A program made the translations under genes and the position numbers. Below, one piece after another: positions 35,726-54,496 of a stretch of DNA of 64,000 nt (position 1 is the first letter of the stretch; the number at the start of each line of letters is the position of its first letter). The notes beneath the pieces are model-generated. The model ran no database searches. It had not been told where the DNA came from and was given only the letters and a program-made list of their open reading frames with translations. Source of the DNA: a virus; the IMG/VR virus record IMGVR_UViG_3300032092_000005, positions 1 through 64,000 of that record; one strand, 5' to 3'.

Positions 35726-35800
35726 GGTGATATAGCACAGTGGAAGTGCAACTCCTTCATACGGAGTAGGTCGTTGGTTCGAATCCAACTATCACCACCA
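35726..35800 (+). tRNA. tRNA-Met(CAT)
   Basis: GGTGATA/TATCACC, TT-CAT-AC loop, CCA. Confidence 0.85.
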
Positions 35801-35840
35801 TATAAAAACACATTCCTATTTTTAGTGTGTTTCTATATGG

Positions 35841-35959
35841 TTGACATGCAATCATTACCGTGTTACAATAACACATCAACAAAAAAAGGAAGCGACATGA
35901 AACGTTCAGGTAAACGATAGTGTCAACTTTTGATCCCATGTATGGTCTTAAGTTGGCAC
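35841..35959 (+). promoter_or_regulatory. Promoter + minigene MKRSGKR (35897-35920) + hairpin
   Basis: TTGACA-17-TACAAT; AGGA SD; GTGTCAACTT/AAGTTGGCAC stem. Confidence 0.65.
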
Positions 35960-36065: not shown

Positions 36066-36141
36066 GGGATCGTGGTGAAATGGTTATCACAGCAGACTTT
36101 TAATCTGCCAGTTTCGGGTTCGAGTCCCGGCGGTCCTACCA
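36066..36141 (+). tRNA. tRNA-Lys(TTT)
   Basis: GCAGA-CTTTTAA-TCTGC, CCA. Confidence 0.92.
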
Positions 36142-36225
36142 TATAAAAACACATTAAGCACCTCGTACGGTGTTAGGGAAGTTCATGCATGGCGACTCGG
36201 CGCAGGCTATAATGTGTTTCTATAT

Positions 36226-36300
36226 GGTGACGTTAGTTTAGTGGCAAAACCGCGGGTTGTGATTCCGCTATCATGGGTTCGATTCCCATACGACACCCCA
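36226..36300 (+). tRNA. tRNA-His(GTG)
   Basis: G-1, TT-GTG-AT loop, C73-CCA. Confidence 0.88.
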
Positions 36301-36562: not shown

Positions 36563-36654
36563 GGAAGATGATGCAGCGGGGTTGGTCCTGCGACTGGCCT
36601 TGAAAACCAGGTTCTCAGAAATGGGATGGGGTTCGACTCCTCCGTCTTCCGCCA
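36563..36654 (+). tRNA. tRNA-Ser(TGA)
   Basis: CT-TGA-AA loop, long variable arm, GCCA. Confidence 0.88.
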
Positions 36655-36695: not shown

Positions 36696-36703
36696 AGAGT
36701 TTT

Positions 36704-36869
36704 AGGATAGGTACAGCAACCCACTAATACCGAATCGTTTAGTCACTGTGGTAAAAAACTGGAGTACGGAGTCTTGACCGAGTACGTTGAAGGTTTGACA
36801 CTGAAACATACTAAGCAAGGAGAGTTTCGATTTTCTCTCTGTAAACAAAAAGTAGACAACTATCCTGTT
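36704..36869 (+). ncRNA. Y-RNA-like scaffold 1
   Basis: AGGATAG/CTATCCT terminal stem, GTACAGCAA, internal T-arm-like hairpin. Confidence 0.65.
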
Positions 36870-36884
36870 ATATTTGAAAGTTTT

Positions 36885-37017
36885 AGGATCGGTACAGCAA
36901 CATTAATCTTTACTAAAAGATGGTTCGAGCTAGTTTAAGGCAATAACACCCTTATTTCTTGAACCCACGTGAGTTTCGAATTCTCACTCGAAAGAAAAAG
37001 TAGAAACCGATCCTGTT
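36885..37017 (+). ncRNA. Y-RNA-like scaffold 2
   Basis: AGGATCGGT/ACCGATCCT stem, GTACAGCAA, GTGAG-TTTCGAATT-CTCAC hairpin. Confidence 0.65.
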
Positions 37018-37024
37018 GTATTTT

Positions 37025-37149
37025 AGGTTAAGTTCCGCAAAACAAAATATGCAAACATAAACCGAAAGTCTGGTTCGATTCCAGCTAGGGCACGTAGTGT
37101 CTTAGTAGTGTAATGGCAGCACATTGGTACGCAAAAAGTTTAACCTGTT
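37025..37149 (+). ncRNA. YrlA-like RNA (scaffold 3 with circularly permuted tRNA domain)
   Basis: AGGTTAA/TTAACCT stem; T-arm, closed acceptor hairpin, D-arm in permuted order. Confidence 0.75.
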
Positions 37150-37167
37150 GATTTGAAAGGAAATATT

Positions 37168-38607
37168 ATGTCAACATTTGTAGAAGCCGTAGTAAACCAA
37201 GAAGCCCGTACTGCCAATGGCATGAAGGCACGTAAGTCCACTGCTAATGCGGTTGTAGATTTATTCTACAATGCAGGTGCAAGCCGTGGTAAGAATATTG
37301 TTCCTGCATTCGCAGCAGCATTTGCGCAAGACCGTGATCTAGCATTGCGCGTAGCCGCCTGGTTGCGTGATGTGCGTAGCGGTGCAGGTGAACGTCAATT
37401 GTTCCGTGATATCTTAGGGTATCTGGAAAACAATGATCGTGTAGCAGCAAAGGCACTTGTTGCAAAGGTTCCTGAATTGGGACGTTGGGATGACTTGTTC
37501 ATCTTCAATTCTAAGGAAATGAAGGAAGCAGCATACACATTGCTTGGTGACGCATTGCGTGAAAAGAATGGCCTTGCAGCTAAGTGGACACCTCGTCAAG
37601 GCAAGCTTGCAGCAGAAATTCGTACATTCTTCGGAATGTCGCCAAAGTTCTACCGCAAGTCTCTAGTTGAAATGACTAACGTTGTTGAAACTAACATGTG
37701 TGCAAAGGACTGGGACGGGATTAACTTCTCGCATGTTCCATCTGTAGCAGCATCGCGGTACAAGAAGGCATTCAACCGTAACACTCCAGCTTATGCAGCA
37801 TACGTTGCAGAGTTGATGAAGGATCCAAAAGATCGTACAGTTGAAGTGAAGGTTAATGCTGGTGCAGTGTACCCATATGATGTACTGAAAGGTCGCATCT
37901 CTGGTTATGGTGTGTCGTTTGACAAGACAGAATTGGATCTGATCCAAAAGCAATGGGAAGCACTACCTAACTTTGTTGGGGATGCAAACATTCTGCCTTT
38001 GGTTGACGTTTCTGGTTCTATGACTTGTCCAGCAGGTGGATCAGGCTCAAAGTCTAAGCTGACTTGCCTGGAAGTTGCAGTCTCTCTGGGATTGTATCTT
38101 GCAGACAAGAACAAGGGTAAGTTCAAGGATACGTTCTTGACTTTTTCTAACAAGCCAGAGTTGATGACTTTGAAGGGCAACATCAATGAGAAGATCAGCC
38201 AAATGGTTTCTTCTGATTGGGGAATGACTACTGACTTGAATCGTGCGTTTGACAAAATCCTTAGTGTAGCAATTAAGGGCAATGTGCCAAACAGTGAAAT
38301 GCCAGAAATGTTGCTGATCCTTTCGGACATGCAATTCAATTCTTGTGTTGCACATGACGATTCGGCTATCGAAATGATGGCACGTAAGTACGAAGCAGCA
38401 GGATACGCCTTACCAAAGGTTGTGTTCTGGAACTTGAATGCTGCATACGGCAATGCGCCTGTGAAGTTTGACAAGTCTGGCACTGCATTGGTTTCGGGGT
38501 TCTCTCCAGCCATTGTTAAGCCTCTGCTATCTGGCGACATGGAAGACTTTTCACCAGAGGCTGTGATGTTGAAGACAATCATGGATGACCGTTATACTGT
38601 GATTTAA
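37168..38607 (+). CDS. DUF2828-family helical + vWA protein (Ro60/TROVE-like)
   Basis: RDVR.G.GER..FR, GRWDDL, AAKW.PR, FS.VPS.A, DVSGSM MIDAS, SDMQF, VFWNL. Confidence 0.85.
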   Translation: MSTFVEAVVNQEARTANGMKARKSTANAVVDLFYNAGASRGKNIVPAFAAAFAQDRDLALRVAAWLRDVRSGAGERQLFRDILGYLENNDRVAAKALVAKVPELGRWDDLFIFNSKEMKEAAYTLLGDALREKNGLAAKWTPRQGKLAAEIRTFFGMSPKFYRKSLVEMTNVVETNMCAKDWDGINFSHVPSVAASRYKKAFNRNTPAYAAYVAELMKDPKDRTVEVKVNAGAVYPYDVLKGRISGYGVSFDKTELDLIQKQWEALPNFVGDANILPLVDVSGSMTCPAGGSGSKSKLTCLEVAVSLGLYLADKNKGKFKDTFLTFSNKPELMTLKGNINEKISQMVSSDWGMTTDLNRAFDKILSVAIKGNVPNSEMPEMLLILSDMQFNSCVAHDDSAIEMMARKYEAAGYALPKVVFWNLNAAYGNAPVKFDKSGTALVSGFSPAIVKPLLSGDMEDFSPEAVMLKTIMDDRYTVI

Positions 38608-39047: not shown

Positions 39048-39163
39048 TATTAAAGCATATTTCAGGTTGGGCTAGATTCGCGGTTTAGCTATTTGGGTAT
39101 CATGGACTAGGTAATTACTAGCACCGGTACTAAGATACGAAATGTGTTTTAATATGGTAGTTT

Positions 39164-39329: not shown

Positions 39330-39423
39330 AATTAAAACATACTGCTTGCCTGACTGCAAAAGTCGTGGTAAACTACAAGAGAAAGAGGTTCGAATCCTCG
39401 GGACTGGTAGTGTGTTTTAATTT

Positions 39424-39947: not shown

Positions 39948-39953
39948 GATTTT

Positions 39954-40016
39954 AGAATGCGTTCAGCAAAAAAATACATTGAACTTTTAATTCAAACCGT
40001 AAAAAAGCATTCTGTT
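39954..40016 (+). ncRNA. Y-RNA-like scaffold 4 with Lys-UUU anticodon arm
   Basis: AGAATGC/GCATTCT stem, GTTCAGCAA, TTGAA-CTTTTAA-TTCAA. Confidence 0.65.
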
Positions 40017-40038
40017 GTTTACATATATAATACGTTGT

Positions 40039-40114
40039 GTACGTGTGCGCCGAACGGCTAGGTAGCGGATTGCAAATCCGTATAATGCAGGTTCGAATCC
40101 TGTCACGTACTCCA
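40039..40114 (+). tRNA. tRNA-Cys(GCA)
   Basis: TT-GCA-AA loop, U73-CCA. Confidence 0.88.
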
Positions 40115-40128
40115 CACAAAAGATTTAT

Positions 40129-40207
40129 TCCGTAGAACCCGAGCATGGTGCATGGGCTTGACTGTTAATCAATGTTTAGCTGGGATCGTTACCCAGATAC
40201 GGAGCCA
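40129..40207 (+). tRNA. tRNA-Asn(GTT), atypical T-loop
   Basis: CT-GTT-AA loop, GCCA; T-loop ATCGTTA. Confidence 0.8.
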
Positions 40208-40217
40208 AAAGTTATAT

Positions 40218-40293
40218 TGCGGGTAGTGCCCAGTCAACAGTCCAGTCTCATAAGCTCGGATCATCGGAGGTGCGAATCCTTCACCCGCAACCA
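40218..40293 (+). tRNA. tRNA-(f)Met(CAT), degenerate D-arm
   Basis: TGCGGGT/ACCCGCA, CT-CAT-AA loop, ACCA. Confidence 0.7.
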
Positions 40294-40298
40294 GTTTT

Positions 40299-40356
40299 AG
40301 GATCAGTTCAGCAAACTTAAAAATTTCTCTTGTTCGGAAAAAAAGTTGATCCTGTT
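40299..40356 (+). ncRNA. Y-RNA-like scaffold 5
   Basis: AGGATCA/TGATCCT stem, GTTCAGCAA, TTTCT-CTTGTTC-GGAAA. Confidence 0.6.
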
Positions 40357-40363
40357 GTTTTTC

Positions 40364-40437
40364 GCCCTATTAGTATAATGGTATTACACCTGTTTTGTAA
40401 TCAGGTTACGGCAGTTCGATTCTGTCATGGGGCACCA
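40364..40437 (+). tRNA. tRNA-Thr(TGT)
   Basis: TT-TGT-AA loop, ACCA. Confidence 0.88.
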
Positions 40438-40602: not shown

Positions 40603-40610
40603 CAAGTTTT

Positions 40611-40673
40611 AGGATAGTTACAGCAAAAAACAAAGCTAACTATTGGTTGTCTAGCGACAAAAGCTATCCTGTT
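40611..40673 (+). ncRNA. Y-RNA-like scaffold 6
   Basis: AGGATAG/CTATCCT stem, TTACAGCAA. Confidence 0.6.
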
Positions 40674-40688
40674 GTTTAATGAGGCTAT

Positions 40689-41234
40689 ATGAAAAAATGT
40701 CCAAAGTGTAATAGTACACATGAAAAAAATGGAAATTTTTGTTCCAGAAAGTGTGGTAATTCTAGGACATGGTCTGAAGAAGATAAGAAAAAAAAATCAG
40801 ATTCTGCTAAAAAATACTACGATGAAAATGTCCACCCAGGATTAGGAAAACCTGGATGGAAACATAGTGATGAACAGAAATTACTCAAAAAGAAATTGTC
40901 TCTTGAAATGTGGGATAAAATTGGTAGAAAATCGTCTGAGCATTATAGACTTGCAAATATTCACACAGTAAACAAATACAGAGCAAGAAGGTATGATGCT
41001 ATAACCGAATCTACAGACTTAAATCTAATTAAAGAGATTTATAAGTACTGTCCTAAAGGTTATGAAGTTGACCATATAATAGCTCTTGCATGTGAAGGCG
41101 AACATCATCAAGATAATTTACAATACCTTCCAGCAATAGAAAATAGAAAGAAAAACAAAACACAAAATTATAACAAGGATCTTGCCGTTCGTTGGCAAGA
41201 TGTATTAAAAATAAGTACAAGGAGTTCACTATGA
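40689..41234 (+). CDS. HNH endonuclease (putative homing endonuclease)
   Basis: CPKC..FCSRKC; EVDHII.L..G.H..DNLQ.L....NRKK. Confidence 0.8.
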   Translation: MKKCPKCNSTHEKNGNFCSRKCGNSRTWSEEDKKKKSDSAKKYYDENVHPGLGKPGWKHSDEQKLLKKKLSLEMWDKIGRKSSEHYRLANIHTVNKYRARRYDAITESTDLNLIKEIYKYCPKGYEVDHIIALACEGEHHQDNLQYLPAIENRKKNKTQNYNKDLAVRWQDVLKISTRSSL

Positions 41235-44761: not shown

Positions 44762-45781
44762 ATGAGAAAATTAGCTACTATTCGAAAGATTGATGCATTG
44801 AATCCTATTGAGGGTGCTGATGCTATTGAATGCGCAACCGTAGGTGGTTGGAAAGTTGTTGTTAAGAAAGGTGAATACAATGTAGGAGACCGTGTTGTCT
44901 ACTGCGAGATTGACTCATGGATTCCTACTGAGTTAGCACCATTCCTATCAAAGGGAAAAGAACCTCGAGAATTCGAAGGCATCAAAGGTGAACGTCTTCG
45001 TACCATCAAGCTGCGCGGTCAGTTGTCACAAGGTTTGCTGTTGCCGTGGACTGTAGGAGGCGGCGTGCTGGACATGGCGCAGATGTTTGCAGGCGAAGGC
45101 GATGATGTATCGGAACTGCTTGGTATTGTGAAGTGGGAAATGCCCATGAATGCACAACTTGCGGGCATGGCACGTGGTAACTTTCCATCTGCAATTCCTA
45201 AGACTGACCAAGAACGTGCGCAAAATCTTGTTGGAGAAATTCTTGCTGCTGCACAAGCTGGTACTCAATTTGAGATTACCGAAAAGCTTGAAGGCTCTTC
45301 AATGACTTGCTACTTGATTGATGGAGAATTTGGTGTTTGCTCACGTAACCTCGACTTGAAGGAAACTGAAGGCAATGCATTCTGGCAAGTTGCGCGGCGT
45401 GATGACATTGAGGCAAAAATGCGTATCGGCCGAAATTTTGCTATTCAAGGCGAGTTGATTGGTCCTGGCATTCAAGGTAATATCTACAAACTACGTGAAC
45501 CAGAGTTCCGTGTGTTTGATGTATACAATATTCAAGGTGGTTGCTATTTGGATCCAGCTGACCGGCGTGAGTTGATTGAGAGCATGGGACTGAAACATGT
45601 TCCTGTTATGTACGTTGACAAGGATCTTGGTGTTGGCTCTGTAGAAGAAATTCTGCAATGGGCTGAAGGTGCATCAAAGCTGAACGAAAAGCAAGAACGT
45701 GAAGGTATCGTATTTAAGGAAGTGAATGGCGGTATGTCATTCAAGGCTATTTCAAATAAGTATCTGCTAGGAGAAAAGTAA
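44762..45781 (+). CDS. RNA ligase, DRB0094 (Rnl5-type) family with N-terminal OB domain
   Basis: PIEGADAIE.A.V.GW, LRGQ.SQGL, KTDQER, TEKLEGSS motif I, QGELIGPGIQGN, EGIVFK, FKAISN. Confidence 0.9.
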   Translation: MRKLATIRKIDALNPIEGADAIECATVGGWKVVVKKGEYNVGDRVVYCEIDSWIPTELAPFLSKGKEPREFEGIKGERLRTIKLRGQLSQGLLLPWTVGGGVLDMAQMFAGEGDDVSELLGIVKWEMPMNAQLAGMARGNFPSAIPKTDQERAQNLVGEILAAAQAGTQFEITEKLEGSSMTCYLIDGEFGVCSRNLDLKETEGNAFWQVARRDDIEAKMRIGRNFAIQGELIGPGIQGNIYKLREPEFRVFDVYNIQGGCYLDPADRRELIESMGLKHVPVMYVDKDLGVGSVEEILQWAEGASKLNEKQEREGIVFKEVNGGMSFKAISNKYLLGEK

Positions 45782-53591: not shown

Positions 53592-54056
53592 ATGAAGAGT
53601 ATGCAAATACAAACGAAAGATGGTGTTACCTATAGTCATGTTCCAGAAATCGGTGGAACTATTTTGGTTCCTTTGTTTTATAAACACATAGCAGAATTGA
53701 TGAAAGCAGGTCATTGTACTCATAAGACTTTCTACTTAGTCACAGATAGTACTCAAGCGATAATTGCAGAAGTTGATGATAAAATAGTGGGGTTTCTGAT
53801 ATTTAATCATGATAAAGAAATGAAAACGATGTATAATGCTCTTGGTCACATTAATATTGACTATAGACGAAGAGGTATATTTGAACTAATAAATAAAAGT
53901 TGGCATACACACGCAAAGATCAATAATACTGATTATGTTCAAGGATACATATCAGTTGAAAATGGAGTGTCTGTAAAAGCCCATAGAAAAATGGGCTATG
54001 ATTTATTCATTTCAAAAGACTTTTCTGGATACTACGAATACATGCGTAAGATATAA
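53592..54056 (+). CDS. GNAT acetyltransferase, copy 2
   Basis: Paralog of copy 1; YRRRGI, N..S...HRKMGY. Confidence 0.8.
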   Translation: MKSMQIQTKDGVTYSHVPEIGGTILVPLFYKHIAELMKAGHCTHKTFYLVTDSTQAIIAEVDDKIVGFLIFNHDKEMKTMYNALGHINIDYRRRGIFELINKSWHTHAKINNTDYVQGYISVENGVSVKAHRKMGYDLFISKDFSGYYEYMRKI

Positions 54057-54099
54057 ATAAAACTATTGACACAGAAGAAGTTCTGTGTTATAATATTGG

Positions 54100-54471
54100 T
54101 TATAGTTGTATGAAGCAAAGAGAAACAGGTTCTGGACGGGGGTGCGAATCCCCCCACCTCCACCAAAAGTAAATATATGATTGATAAACCATTACCACCA
54201 GCAACAAAGTATTGGTGTGACTCATGCGGAACTTTAGAAAGTCCAGATAAACACAAAAATATTTTTTGTAAGTTGTTTAAATGGTTAGATAGTGTTTTCT
54301 TTTGATGGGGGTGCATAGTTTCGACAGGGCAAAGAGTAACAGAGTGGACAACTCACCAGAGTAGGTGTAAAAACTAAATCAAAGTAAACGCAAACGACTC
54401 ACAGTTCGCATTAGCAGCCTAAACGCCGCTTAGGGTTTCGATAGCTTTCCTCGTAACAGAATAAGCTATCA
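54100..54471 (+). ncRNA. ssrA: Circularly permuted two-piece tmRNA, tag ANDSQFALAA
   Basis: T-arm/acceptor + CCA (to 54165) precede GGGGGTG (54307) with G3:U70; tag at 54390-54422; upstream TTGACA-17-TATAAT promoter. Confidence 0.9.
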
Positions 54472-54496
54472 CTTTTATTAACATGGAGATATACAT

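Follow-up and report, generated by a model that had tools for sequence, protein, structure and literature searches.

Anticodon-arm look-alikes on handle-bearing RNAs beside the gene for a predicted Ro60-like protein in a lake phage tRNA array

The DNA considered here is a section of 64,000 nt, hereafter the window, of the 152-kb record of an uncultured lake phage (IMGVR_UViG_3300032092_000005). ARAGORN identified 25 tRNA genes in the window, between 35.6 and 42.7 kb, and within this array we observed six elements with a common layout: TTTAG, an arm of 5-6 nt, (G)TWCMGCAA, a variable interior, an A-rich run, the complementary arm and CTGTTGT. These elements are referred to as scaffolds (S1 to S6), their shared outer part as the handle and the interior as the cargo. 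A regular expression for the handle, in which the arm was required to pair, matched exactly six times in the entire 152-kb genome, always on the + strand. The scaffolds abut tRNAs at distances of 3-20 nt, and three of the six (S1-S3) lie directly upstream of an open reading frame (ORF) for a protein whose predicted structure resembles Ro60. S4 and S5, two RNAs of ~65 bases, are the main subject of this analysis, since their cargos contain hairpins that look like the anticodon arm of a tRNA (Table 1).

An earlier note on this DNA had read bare anticodon arms in S4 and S5, and both hairpins are present as described. In S4, the strands TTGAA (39979-39983) and TTCAA (39991-39995) enclose the loop CTTTTAA (39984-39990), which is identical to the loop of the phage's own tRNA-Lys(ttt) (36066-36141). 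As RNA, this loop, CUUUUAA, satisfies all four rules for an anticodon loop: a pyrimidine at position 32, U33, a purine at position 37 and A38. In S5, the strands TTTCT (40324-40328) and GGAAA (40336-40340) enclose CTTGTTC (40329-40335), and the stem is closed by a U.G pair. According to dinucleotide shuffles, the chance per cargo of any hairpin with a 5-bp stem and a 7-nt loop is ~13%, that of such a hairpin with a Y-U-NNN-R-N loop ~1.3%, and that of one with a CU-NNN-AA loop ~0.3%. S4 is unusual even when taken singly, at roughly a 1-in-100 event. S5 taken singly is within chance expectation, because the U37 and C38 of its loop are seldom found in real tRNAs. The earlier note had also attached importance to the position of S5 just before tRNA-Thr(tgt) (40364-40437), which begins 5 nt after the end of the scaffold; this was not supported, as the nearest relatives carry UGA or UUU and precede other tRNAs. 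Neither ARAGORN nor Rfam reported a tRNA on S4 or S5, and the elements of the cloverleaf (acceptor stem, D arm and T arm) are absent from these RNAs, whose cargo is only about 35 nt long.

The relatives examined were 80 phage contigs that encode the same protein, assigned to the Pfam families DUF2828 and DUF7788, at 67-90% identity. The regular expression (handle and paired arm) located 195 further scaffolds in 74 of these 80 loci, all of them on the strand of the gene and the tRNAs, and in each of the 74 loci one or more scaffolds lie no further than 6 kb from the Ro60-like gene. As a control for false positives, a loose handle pattern was run over the viral collection; it returned chance matches only, three of which pass the full expression. 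Since the matches of the loose pattern mostly fail it, few false positives are expected.

Tabulating the loops over the homologous scaffolds, a check that the earlier note had proposed, showed that 7-nt CU-NNN-AA loops are strongly enriched and that the 5-bp stems beneath them covary. The set comprised 64 distinct short cargos, from scaffolds under 90 nt. A hairpin with a 5-bp stem and a 7-nt loop occurs in 52 of them, compared with 8.6 +/- 2.5 (maximum 16) in dinucleotide shuffles; 7 of these 52 hairpins are incidental and come from S6-type cargos. The Y-U-NNN-R-N loop was found in 33/64 cargos (0.8 +/- 0.9 in the shuffles) and the exact CU-NNN-AA loop in 32/64 (0.2, maximum 2). Over the 52 hairpins, U33 is present in 43, A37 in 41 and A38 in 44, a pattern that agrees with 1367 real tRNAs of these phages. 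Three subfamilies were distinguished according to the sequences that flank the arm. Subfamily A (TACA-arm-ACCGTA), to which S4 belongs, displays the anticodon letters UUU or UCU, and subfamily B (GCA-arm-AACGC) displays UGU and, once, UCU. Subfamily C, which contains S5, has A-rich linkers and displays GUU, GUA, GUC, GAA, GGA, GGU, GCC, UGA, UGG, UUU and UGU; about a third of its members have A32. In relatives whose handle arms are the same as those of S5, the loops are canonical (CTTGAAA, L016:340; CTTTTAA, L066:1327). A dependence of the mimic anticodon on the adjoining tRNA, or on the lack of a matching phage tRNA, was also considered, and no pattern was found.

Covariation in the arm was evaluated by aligning 44 rows (33 distinct) without gaps, with the hairpin as the anchor. 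The rows had been selected for having the hairpin, so that their 100% pairing is circular, while the covariation and the share of qualifying cargos are not. Changes affect both members of each of the five stem pairs (51 cells; 0 of 500 shuffles attained this number), and controls in which the arm was slid were 38-60% paired. The stems of the S4 orthologues illustrate this, with the variants TTGAA/TTCAA, TTAGA/TCTAA and TTTGA/TCAAA. The closing stem of the handle has 4 covarying pairs. RNAalifold, applied to a MAFFT alignment of 44 whole scaffolds, recovered no more than the handle stem, since the three subfamilies have their arms out of register. A pseudoknot in which CAGCA of the handle would pair with UGUUG of the 3' tail was considered and dropped, given that variants on either side are uncompensated. 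The arms contain U.G pairs and the handle an invariant U.G, which is consistent with an RNA transcribed from the + strand. These observations bear on the possibility that the scaffolds do not function as RNAs: they could instead be remnants of decayed tRNAs, or elements that act at the DNA level, for example sites of recombination or homing within a mosaic tRNA array. The arrays are indeed mosaic, and HNH-like ORFs adjoin some scaffolds. However, the strand bias is strict (201 to 0 for the relatives and the source genome combined), the U.G pairs would read A.C on the opposite strand, compensatory changes occur in two separate helices, and the scaffold is conserved more strongly than the adjoining tRNA genes; we consider this explanation very improbable.

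The difference in conservation was observed at an orthologous position located after tRNA-Ile, which we call slot alpha. The 62-nt RNA encoded there has handles and stems that are identical across seven loci, whereas the neighbouring tRNA-Ile genes are of three strongly diverged types and the downstream genes also differ. In a set of 11 distinct sequences, including contigs found through the exact handle, the pairwise diversity of positions 34, 35 and 36 was 0.18, 0.47 and 0.64, respectively, compared with 0.07 for the stems and 0 for positions 33 and 38. This slot displays the anticodons GUU (the commonest), GUA, GUC, GAA, GGA and UGA. Thus, the slot-alpha RNA is under stronger constraint than the adjoining tRNA genes and its change is concentrated in the anticodon letters: related phages retain the arm and alter the three letters. 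Either diversifying selection or a simple lack of constraint at these positions would account for this pattern.

The presumed partner of these RNAs is the product of the gene that follows S1-S3. It matches Pfam DUF2828 and DUF7788 and not TROVE, and a sequence search of the PDB gave no match. The AlphaFold model of this protein is of moderate quality (predicted local distance difference test, pLDDT, 70; predicted template-modelling score, pTM, 0.61). The 13 best PDB matches of the model were all Ro60, with ~500 aligned columns, template-modelling (TM) scores of 0.35-0.57 and E values of 4e-9 to 1e-5, the best being the Ro60 of Thermus phage phiLo (9kop, E 4e-9, TM 0.56). By this structure match, the modelled protein has the HEAT-repeat ring and the vWA domain that characterize Ro60/TROVE proteins. 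In about 20 loci, a short anticodon-arm scaffold lies immediately upstream of the gene (~80 nt before its start), a position that in the window is held by S3. Since the neighbouring protein is predicted to fold like Ro60, the scaffolds are best read as Y-RNA-like partner RNAs, and S4 and S5 are very probably partner RNAs of this protein that carry an anticodon arm as cargo. The mimics had been described as protein-protected in the earlier note; the predicted Ro60 fold of the neighbour and the frequent location of arm scaffolds directly upstream of its gene in the relatives make a protein partner likely. Metatranscriptome contigs from four lake runs, which cannot show RNA ends and may derive from DNA in the libraries, cover S1-S3 and the Ro60-like gene.

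It is forty years since Ro60 and Y RNAs became known. For the cargo of bacterial and phage Y RNAs, a bare anticodon arm would point to a concrete class of partners that can be tested, namely readers or cutters of anticodon loops. The scaffolds resemble the Y RNAs YrlA and YrlB (RF02553; PMC4201824), which accompany Ro60/Rsr, in that several small RNAs per genome are encoded beside a gene with a (here predicted) Ro60 fold, their 5' and 3' ends make a long closing stem with a conserved, presumed docking region, and the cargo imitates part of a tRNA. In contrast, the cargo of YrlA imitates the T, D and acceptor arms of a tRNA and has the Ro60 stem where the anticodon arm would be, whereas that of S4 and S5 is the anticodon arm alone; the sequence of the handle is different, and the partner belongs to DUF2828/DUF7788 instead of TROVE. 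The six scaffolds gave no match to RF02553 or any other Rfam family at the gathering threshold or at E <= 10, and the weak YrlA matches in the window fall on true tRNAs. Among the features by which Y RNAs are recognized, the vicinity of a Ro60 orthologue applies here through the predicted structural match, with DUF2828/DUF7788 as the Pfam assignment, and the module of T and D arms is missing from S4 and S5 and occurs in other scaffolds with the same handle. A possible anticodon arm with a 5-bp stem was modelled by Chen et al. (PMC4201824) in Yrn1 of Deinococcus radiodurans; however, its loop has 6 nt instead of 7, it is located inside a larger tRNA-like module, and comparative evidence for anticodon-like loop rules was not given. 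Phage phiLo also combines a Ro60-fold protein with Y-like RNAs, Yrl1 and Yrl2, encoded upstream (PMC12135203; 9kop, 9l5y), but the two proteins share 16% sequence identity, Yrl1 and Yrl2 were chosen by a CGAA motif, and an anticodon-arm cargo was not reported for them.

The relationship with Y RNAs raises the possibility that the arm works as an adaptor, tethering an anticodon-arm-binding enzyme to the Ro60-like ring and thereby redirecting or sequestering it during infection, as a Y RNA tethers PNPase to Rsr. The machinery for t6A37, i6A37, queuosine or xm5U34 modification, or a synthetase, would be candidates for this enzyme. Most mimic anticodons end in U36-A37 or A36-A37-A38, which are determinants of t6A and i6A modification, although this bias possibly reflects just the A+T-rich composition of the cargo. 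In favour of an adaptor, Y RNAs are known tethers whose tRNA-like modules are substrates of tRNA-modifying enzymes (PMC4201824), and phiLo Ro60 binds Yrl1, Yrl2 and the host PNPase and is proposed to subvert host RNA enzymes (PMC12135203). However, no candidate enzyme is linked within the locus, and the switching of positions 35 and 36 between close relatives would be unexplained unless several enzymes are addressed. On balance, we regard an adaptor role as rather unlikely.

Regarding the fidelity of the mimics to real tRNA arms, the idea that they are copies of the arms of the phage's own tRNAs with the same anticodon was discarded, since the two are 4-8 letters apart; only slot alpha comes closer, with 2 differences from the phage tRNA-Asn arm. 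A scan of bacterial genomes for a tRNA-Lys-like arm followed by a T arm listed 120 loci, and the counts given here hold among the matches listed. The sequence TTTGACTTTTAATCAAA, which equals the subfamily-A arm of two relatives (L018 and L050) at 17/17 letters, was found in 118/120 loci, and TTAGACTTTTAATCTAA, of the type present in L021, in the other 2; ARAGORN recognized 116 of 121 matches as tRNA-Lys(ttt) genes. The arm of L018 and L050, which carries the stem variant TTTGA, is therefore that of the tRNA-Lys(UUU) of many bacteria. Over the family, the loop and the shape are always tRNA-like and the stem sequence only sometimes. A further class of cargo, present in ten loci, has the D, anticodon and T arms ordered as in a tRNA, and the handle takes the place of the acceptor stem; its anticodon is always UCU or UUU, and its stems covary. 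As a separate observation, GTTGACTTTTAATCAATTGG occurs in lake metatranscriptome contigs that partly match the phage tRNAs (39803/38746 joint, runs X2 and X4), between the matching parts. It is a cellular-type tRNA-Lys(UUU) arm of another organism in the same samples and is identical at 15/17 letters to the mimic of L018 and L050 (subfamily A).

The hairpin could also be generic, that is, a compact U-turn derived from a tRNA ancestor that caps or gates the Ro60-like ring as a structural element and whose anticodon letters are unconstrained and drift. Consistent with this, variation is limited to the three loop positions that are structurally least constrained, the stem sequences drift through compensatory changes, and the same handle also bears cargos that are not anticodon-like (the tetraloop hairpin of S6 and the long T-arm cargos). 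However, position 34 is only G or U in canonical-looped arm-type cargos, even though the cargo is 50% A, and C32, U33, A37 and A38 are retained as in real tRNAs. Moreover, one variant copies a cellular tRNA-Lys arm exactly, and a separate class of cargo retains the whole tRNA body with UCU or UUU. These properties make a generic hairpin unlikely. The 12 distinct triplets of the mimics are all found among the tRNA anticodons of these phages, which is weakly informative given the presence of G or U at position 34.

The reading that we favour, still tentatively, is that the mimics serve as nuclease baits. In a more specific and slightly less probable form of this reading, with a probability of roughly 0.3, the phages of this group would deploy a set of protein-clamped, re-sealable anticodon-arm baits, one arm per Ro60-like particle, whose letters would be adjusted in each phage to the specificities of the nucleases in its local hosts. 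We infer the expression of S4 and S5 as discrete RNAs, the binding of the handle to the protein and the bait mechanism as a whole, which would operate as follows. Both RNAs would be cut from the transcript of the tRNA array, presumably through tRNA processing because they abut tRNAs so closely. Their ends pair as an 8-bp closing stem, flanked by the conserved GUWCAGCAA strand and the A-rich strand, and the resulting handle, common to all six RNAs, would most likely dock the Ro60-shaped DUF2828 protein. The cargo is a stand-alone mimic of the anticodon arm, 5 bp in the stem and 7 nt in the loop, in which U33, A37 and A38 are present, and the particle would offer it to the anticodon-loop readers of the host, above all to tRNA-cutting defence nucleases. 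These nucleases would be occupied or trapped by the bait rather than cutting the tRNAs that the phage needs. The halves of a cut arm would remain clamped in the handle, where the phage RNA ligase could re-seal them.

From the earlier proposal of anticodon mimics acting as decoys, the display of anticodon-arm look-alikes is borne out by the enrichment and the covariation, and the decoy function is plausible by precedent, because isolated anticodon arms are known nuclease substrates. Colicin E5 cleaves 17-nt anticodon minihelices as well as whole tRNAs, with YGUN as the determinant (PMC1635277), to which the CU-GU-N loops of slot alpha may be compared. Cas13b6 cleaves isolated anticodon arms (PMC13692257), and PrrC reads cues within the anticodon stem-loop (PMC1484252). 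The AriB nuclease of PARIS targets Lys(UUU), Thr(UGU) and Asn(GUU) via U36-A-A-U-C|A (PMC12409363); UGU, UUU and GUU are among the commonest mimic anticodons, and L018 and L050 have the full UAAUCA.

The genome encodes an RNA ligase 4 kb downstream and, elsewhere, an AAA_33-type kinase. Both genes would also fit an alarm, in which cleavage of the arm by a nuclease changes the ribonucleoprotein, for example by freeing or activating the Ro60-like protein, and so elicits a countermeasure such as tRNA repair. A parallel is the rsr-Y RNA-rtcBA operon of Salmonella, which responds to damaged tRNA (PMC7790460). However, a regulator or CARF-like sensor was not seen near the locus, RtcB was not found in the genome, and the idea is purely inferential; an alarm seems improbable.

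Several points weigh against the bait reading. The loop of S5 has U at position 37, where a purine would be expected. In isolation, the hairpins of S4 and S5 fold as proposed, with a predicted stability that is marginal (-0.7 kcal/mol, z about 0); when the complete RNAs are folded, the minimum-energy structures are different and weak (z about -0.5). Thermodynamics is neutral on the arm, neither supporting nor refuting it; given the marginal stability, the support for the hairpins is comparative rather than thermodynamic. The stem variant of S4 itself is not among the 120 tRNA-Lys genes, among the matches listed, and the subfamily-B (UGU) arm, which is the commonest mimic, matched no cellular tRNA arm in 802 sampled genomes from two phyla, so the stem sequence is not always copied. 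The metatranscriptome contigs of the four lake runs barely touch S4 and S5. AriB also requires contacts with the D loop (PMC12409363), and a bare arm has none. In addition, the titration of a multiple-turnover nuclease needs tight binding or a high copy number. Finally, positions 35 and 36 could vary simply because they are unconstrained and not as the result of an arms race.

Among known phage countermeasures, the bait that we propose can be compared with escape tRNAs, such as tRNA-Lys/Thr/Asn of T5, which act against PARIS AriB (PMC12409363), and the anticodon-loop variants described in PMC10264068. Like the scaffolds, these are encoded in phage arrays, they involve the same anticodons (Lys-UUU, Thr-UGU and Asn-GUU), and both presumably take part in a contest over tRNA cleavage. 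In contrast, escape tRNAs are complete decoding tRNAs that resist cleavage and replace the cut tRNAs of the host, whereas the scaffold RNAs cannot be charged or decode and, if anything, resemble the susceptible cellular arm. RNA anti-CRISPRs (Racrs; PMC10651486) offer a similarity of logic only: a small phage RNA mimics an RNA element of the host to occupy a defence protein, as is proposed here. Racrs mimic CRISPR repeats and bind Cas proteins, with neither a Ro60-like partner nor a likeness to tRNA. We found no description in the searchable literature of a bare anticodon-arm cargo whose letters switch between relatives. If the bait reading is correct, these RNAs would represent an RNA-based layer of counter-defence against tRNA-cutting immunity (PrrC, PARIS, retrons, Cas13 and colicin-like toxins), acting beside resistant phage tRNAs and the RNA ligase, and Ro60-like proteins would gain a defined role in the conflict over tRNA cleavage. 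Even if it is wrong, the scaffolds provide a clean case of modular RNA display on a single handle that presumably docks a protein.

Table 1. Features of the scaffold locus in the window and related cargo loci
Feature	Coordinates	Strand	Basis
Scaffold 4 (S4), complete handle RNA, subfamily A (cargo TACA-[arm]-ACCGTA)	39951..40018	+	Regular expression with paired-arm requirement; handle stem covaries
S4 handle	5' part 39951-39969; 3' part 40007-40018	+	
S4 anticodon-arm mimic, stem TTGAA/TTCAA, loop CTTTTAA, UUU in anticodon position	39979..39995	+	Orthologue stems covary
Scaffold 5 (S5), complete handle RNA, subfamily C (A-rich linkers)	40296..40358	+	Handle regular expression
S5 hairpin TTTCT-CTTGTTC-GGAAA, UGU in anticodon position, positions 37-38 non-canonical (U, C)	40324..40340	+	
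Scaffold 6 (S6), same handle, cargo a UUGUC-UAGC-GACAA tetraloop hairpin, no anticodon arm	40608..40675	+	
Scaffolds 1-3 (S1-S3), long cargos with T-arm-like hairpins on the same handle, located just before the Ro60-like gene	36701..37151 (starts 36701, 36882, 37022)	+	
DUF2828/DUF7788 protein gene (479 aa), predicted Ro60-like fold, presumed handle partner	37168..38607	+	Pfam; AlphaFold model; structure search
RNA ligase gene (PF09414 and PHA02142 OB domain), context only, possible re-sealing enzyme	44762..45781	+	Domain match
Near-complete-tRNA cargos in related loci	L006:3700-3805, L010:4255, L011:4007, L038:5045, L030:322, L020:3364, L019:2121, L047:3009, L024:1821, L026:3072		

Other elements were observed in and around the array. 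Cargos of the S6 type are present in about 15 loci and consist of a conserved AGCUAAACUUUUUGG followed by the UUGUC-UAGC-GACAA tetraloop hairpin, which is not anticodon-like. Directly after S6 there is an ORF of 181 aa (40689-41234) with no Pfam match, in which Cys pairs and a His-Asn motif, recognized by eye, are reminiscent of an HNH endonuclease. A small ORF similar to it lies in an insertion of ~380 nt between tRNA-Ile and the slot-alpha scaffold of one relative (L008, about 2065-2447).

Two tRNA-like genes between tRNA-Cys and S5 were missed by ARAGORN with default settings and by Rfam. The first (40129-40207) was identified by ARAGORN at a lowered threshold as a tRNA-Asn(gtt) with the odd T loop ATCGTTA, and the second (40214-40293) resembles by eye a tRNA with a CAT anticodon and the T loop TGCGAAT. 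Another tRNA-like element, with a long variable arm, is located at 36563-36654; it scored 35 bits against the tRNA-Sec model, which is below the threshold, its anticodon loop was ambiguous in the low-threshold ARAGORN run, and a serine-type tRNA is possible. In the arrays of the related phages, ARAGORN reported tRNAs with stop-reading anticodons (tta in L010 and cta in L043), which are possible suppressor tRNAs.

A second repeated RNA layout was observed at 35800-35850, 36133-36226, 39050-39163 and 39330-39423. It consists of long stems of the type AAAACACAT...ATGTGTTT that begin at the 3' end of a tRNA and surround variable inserts. Outside the array, a two-piece (permuted) transfer-messenger RNA is encoded at 54052-54477; it matched the betaproteobacterial model with 103.5 bits, which gives a hint of the host group.

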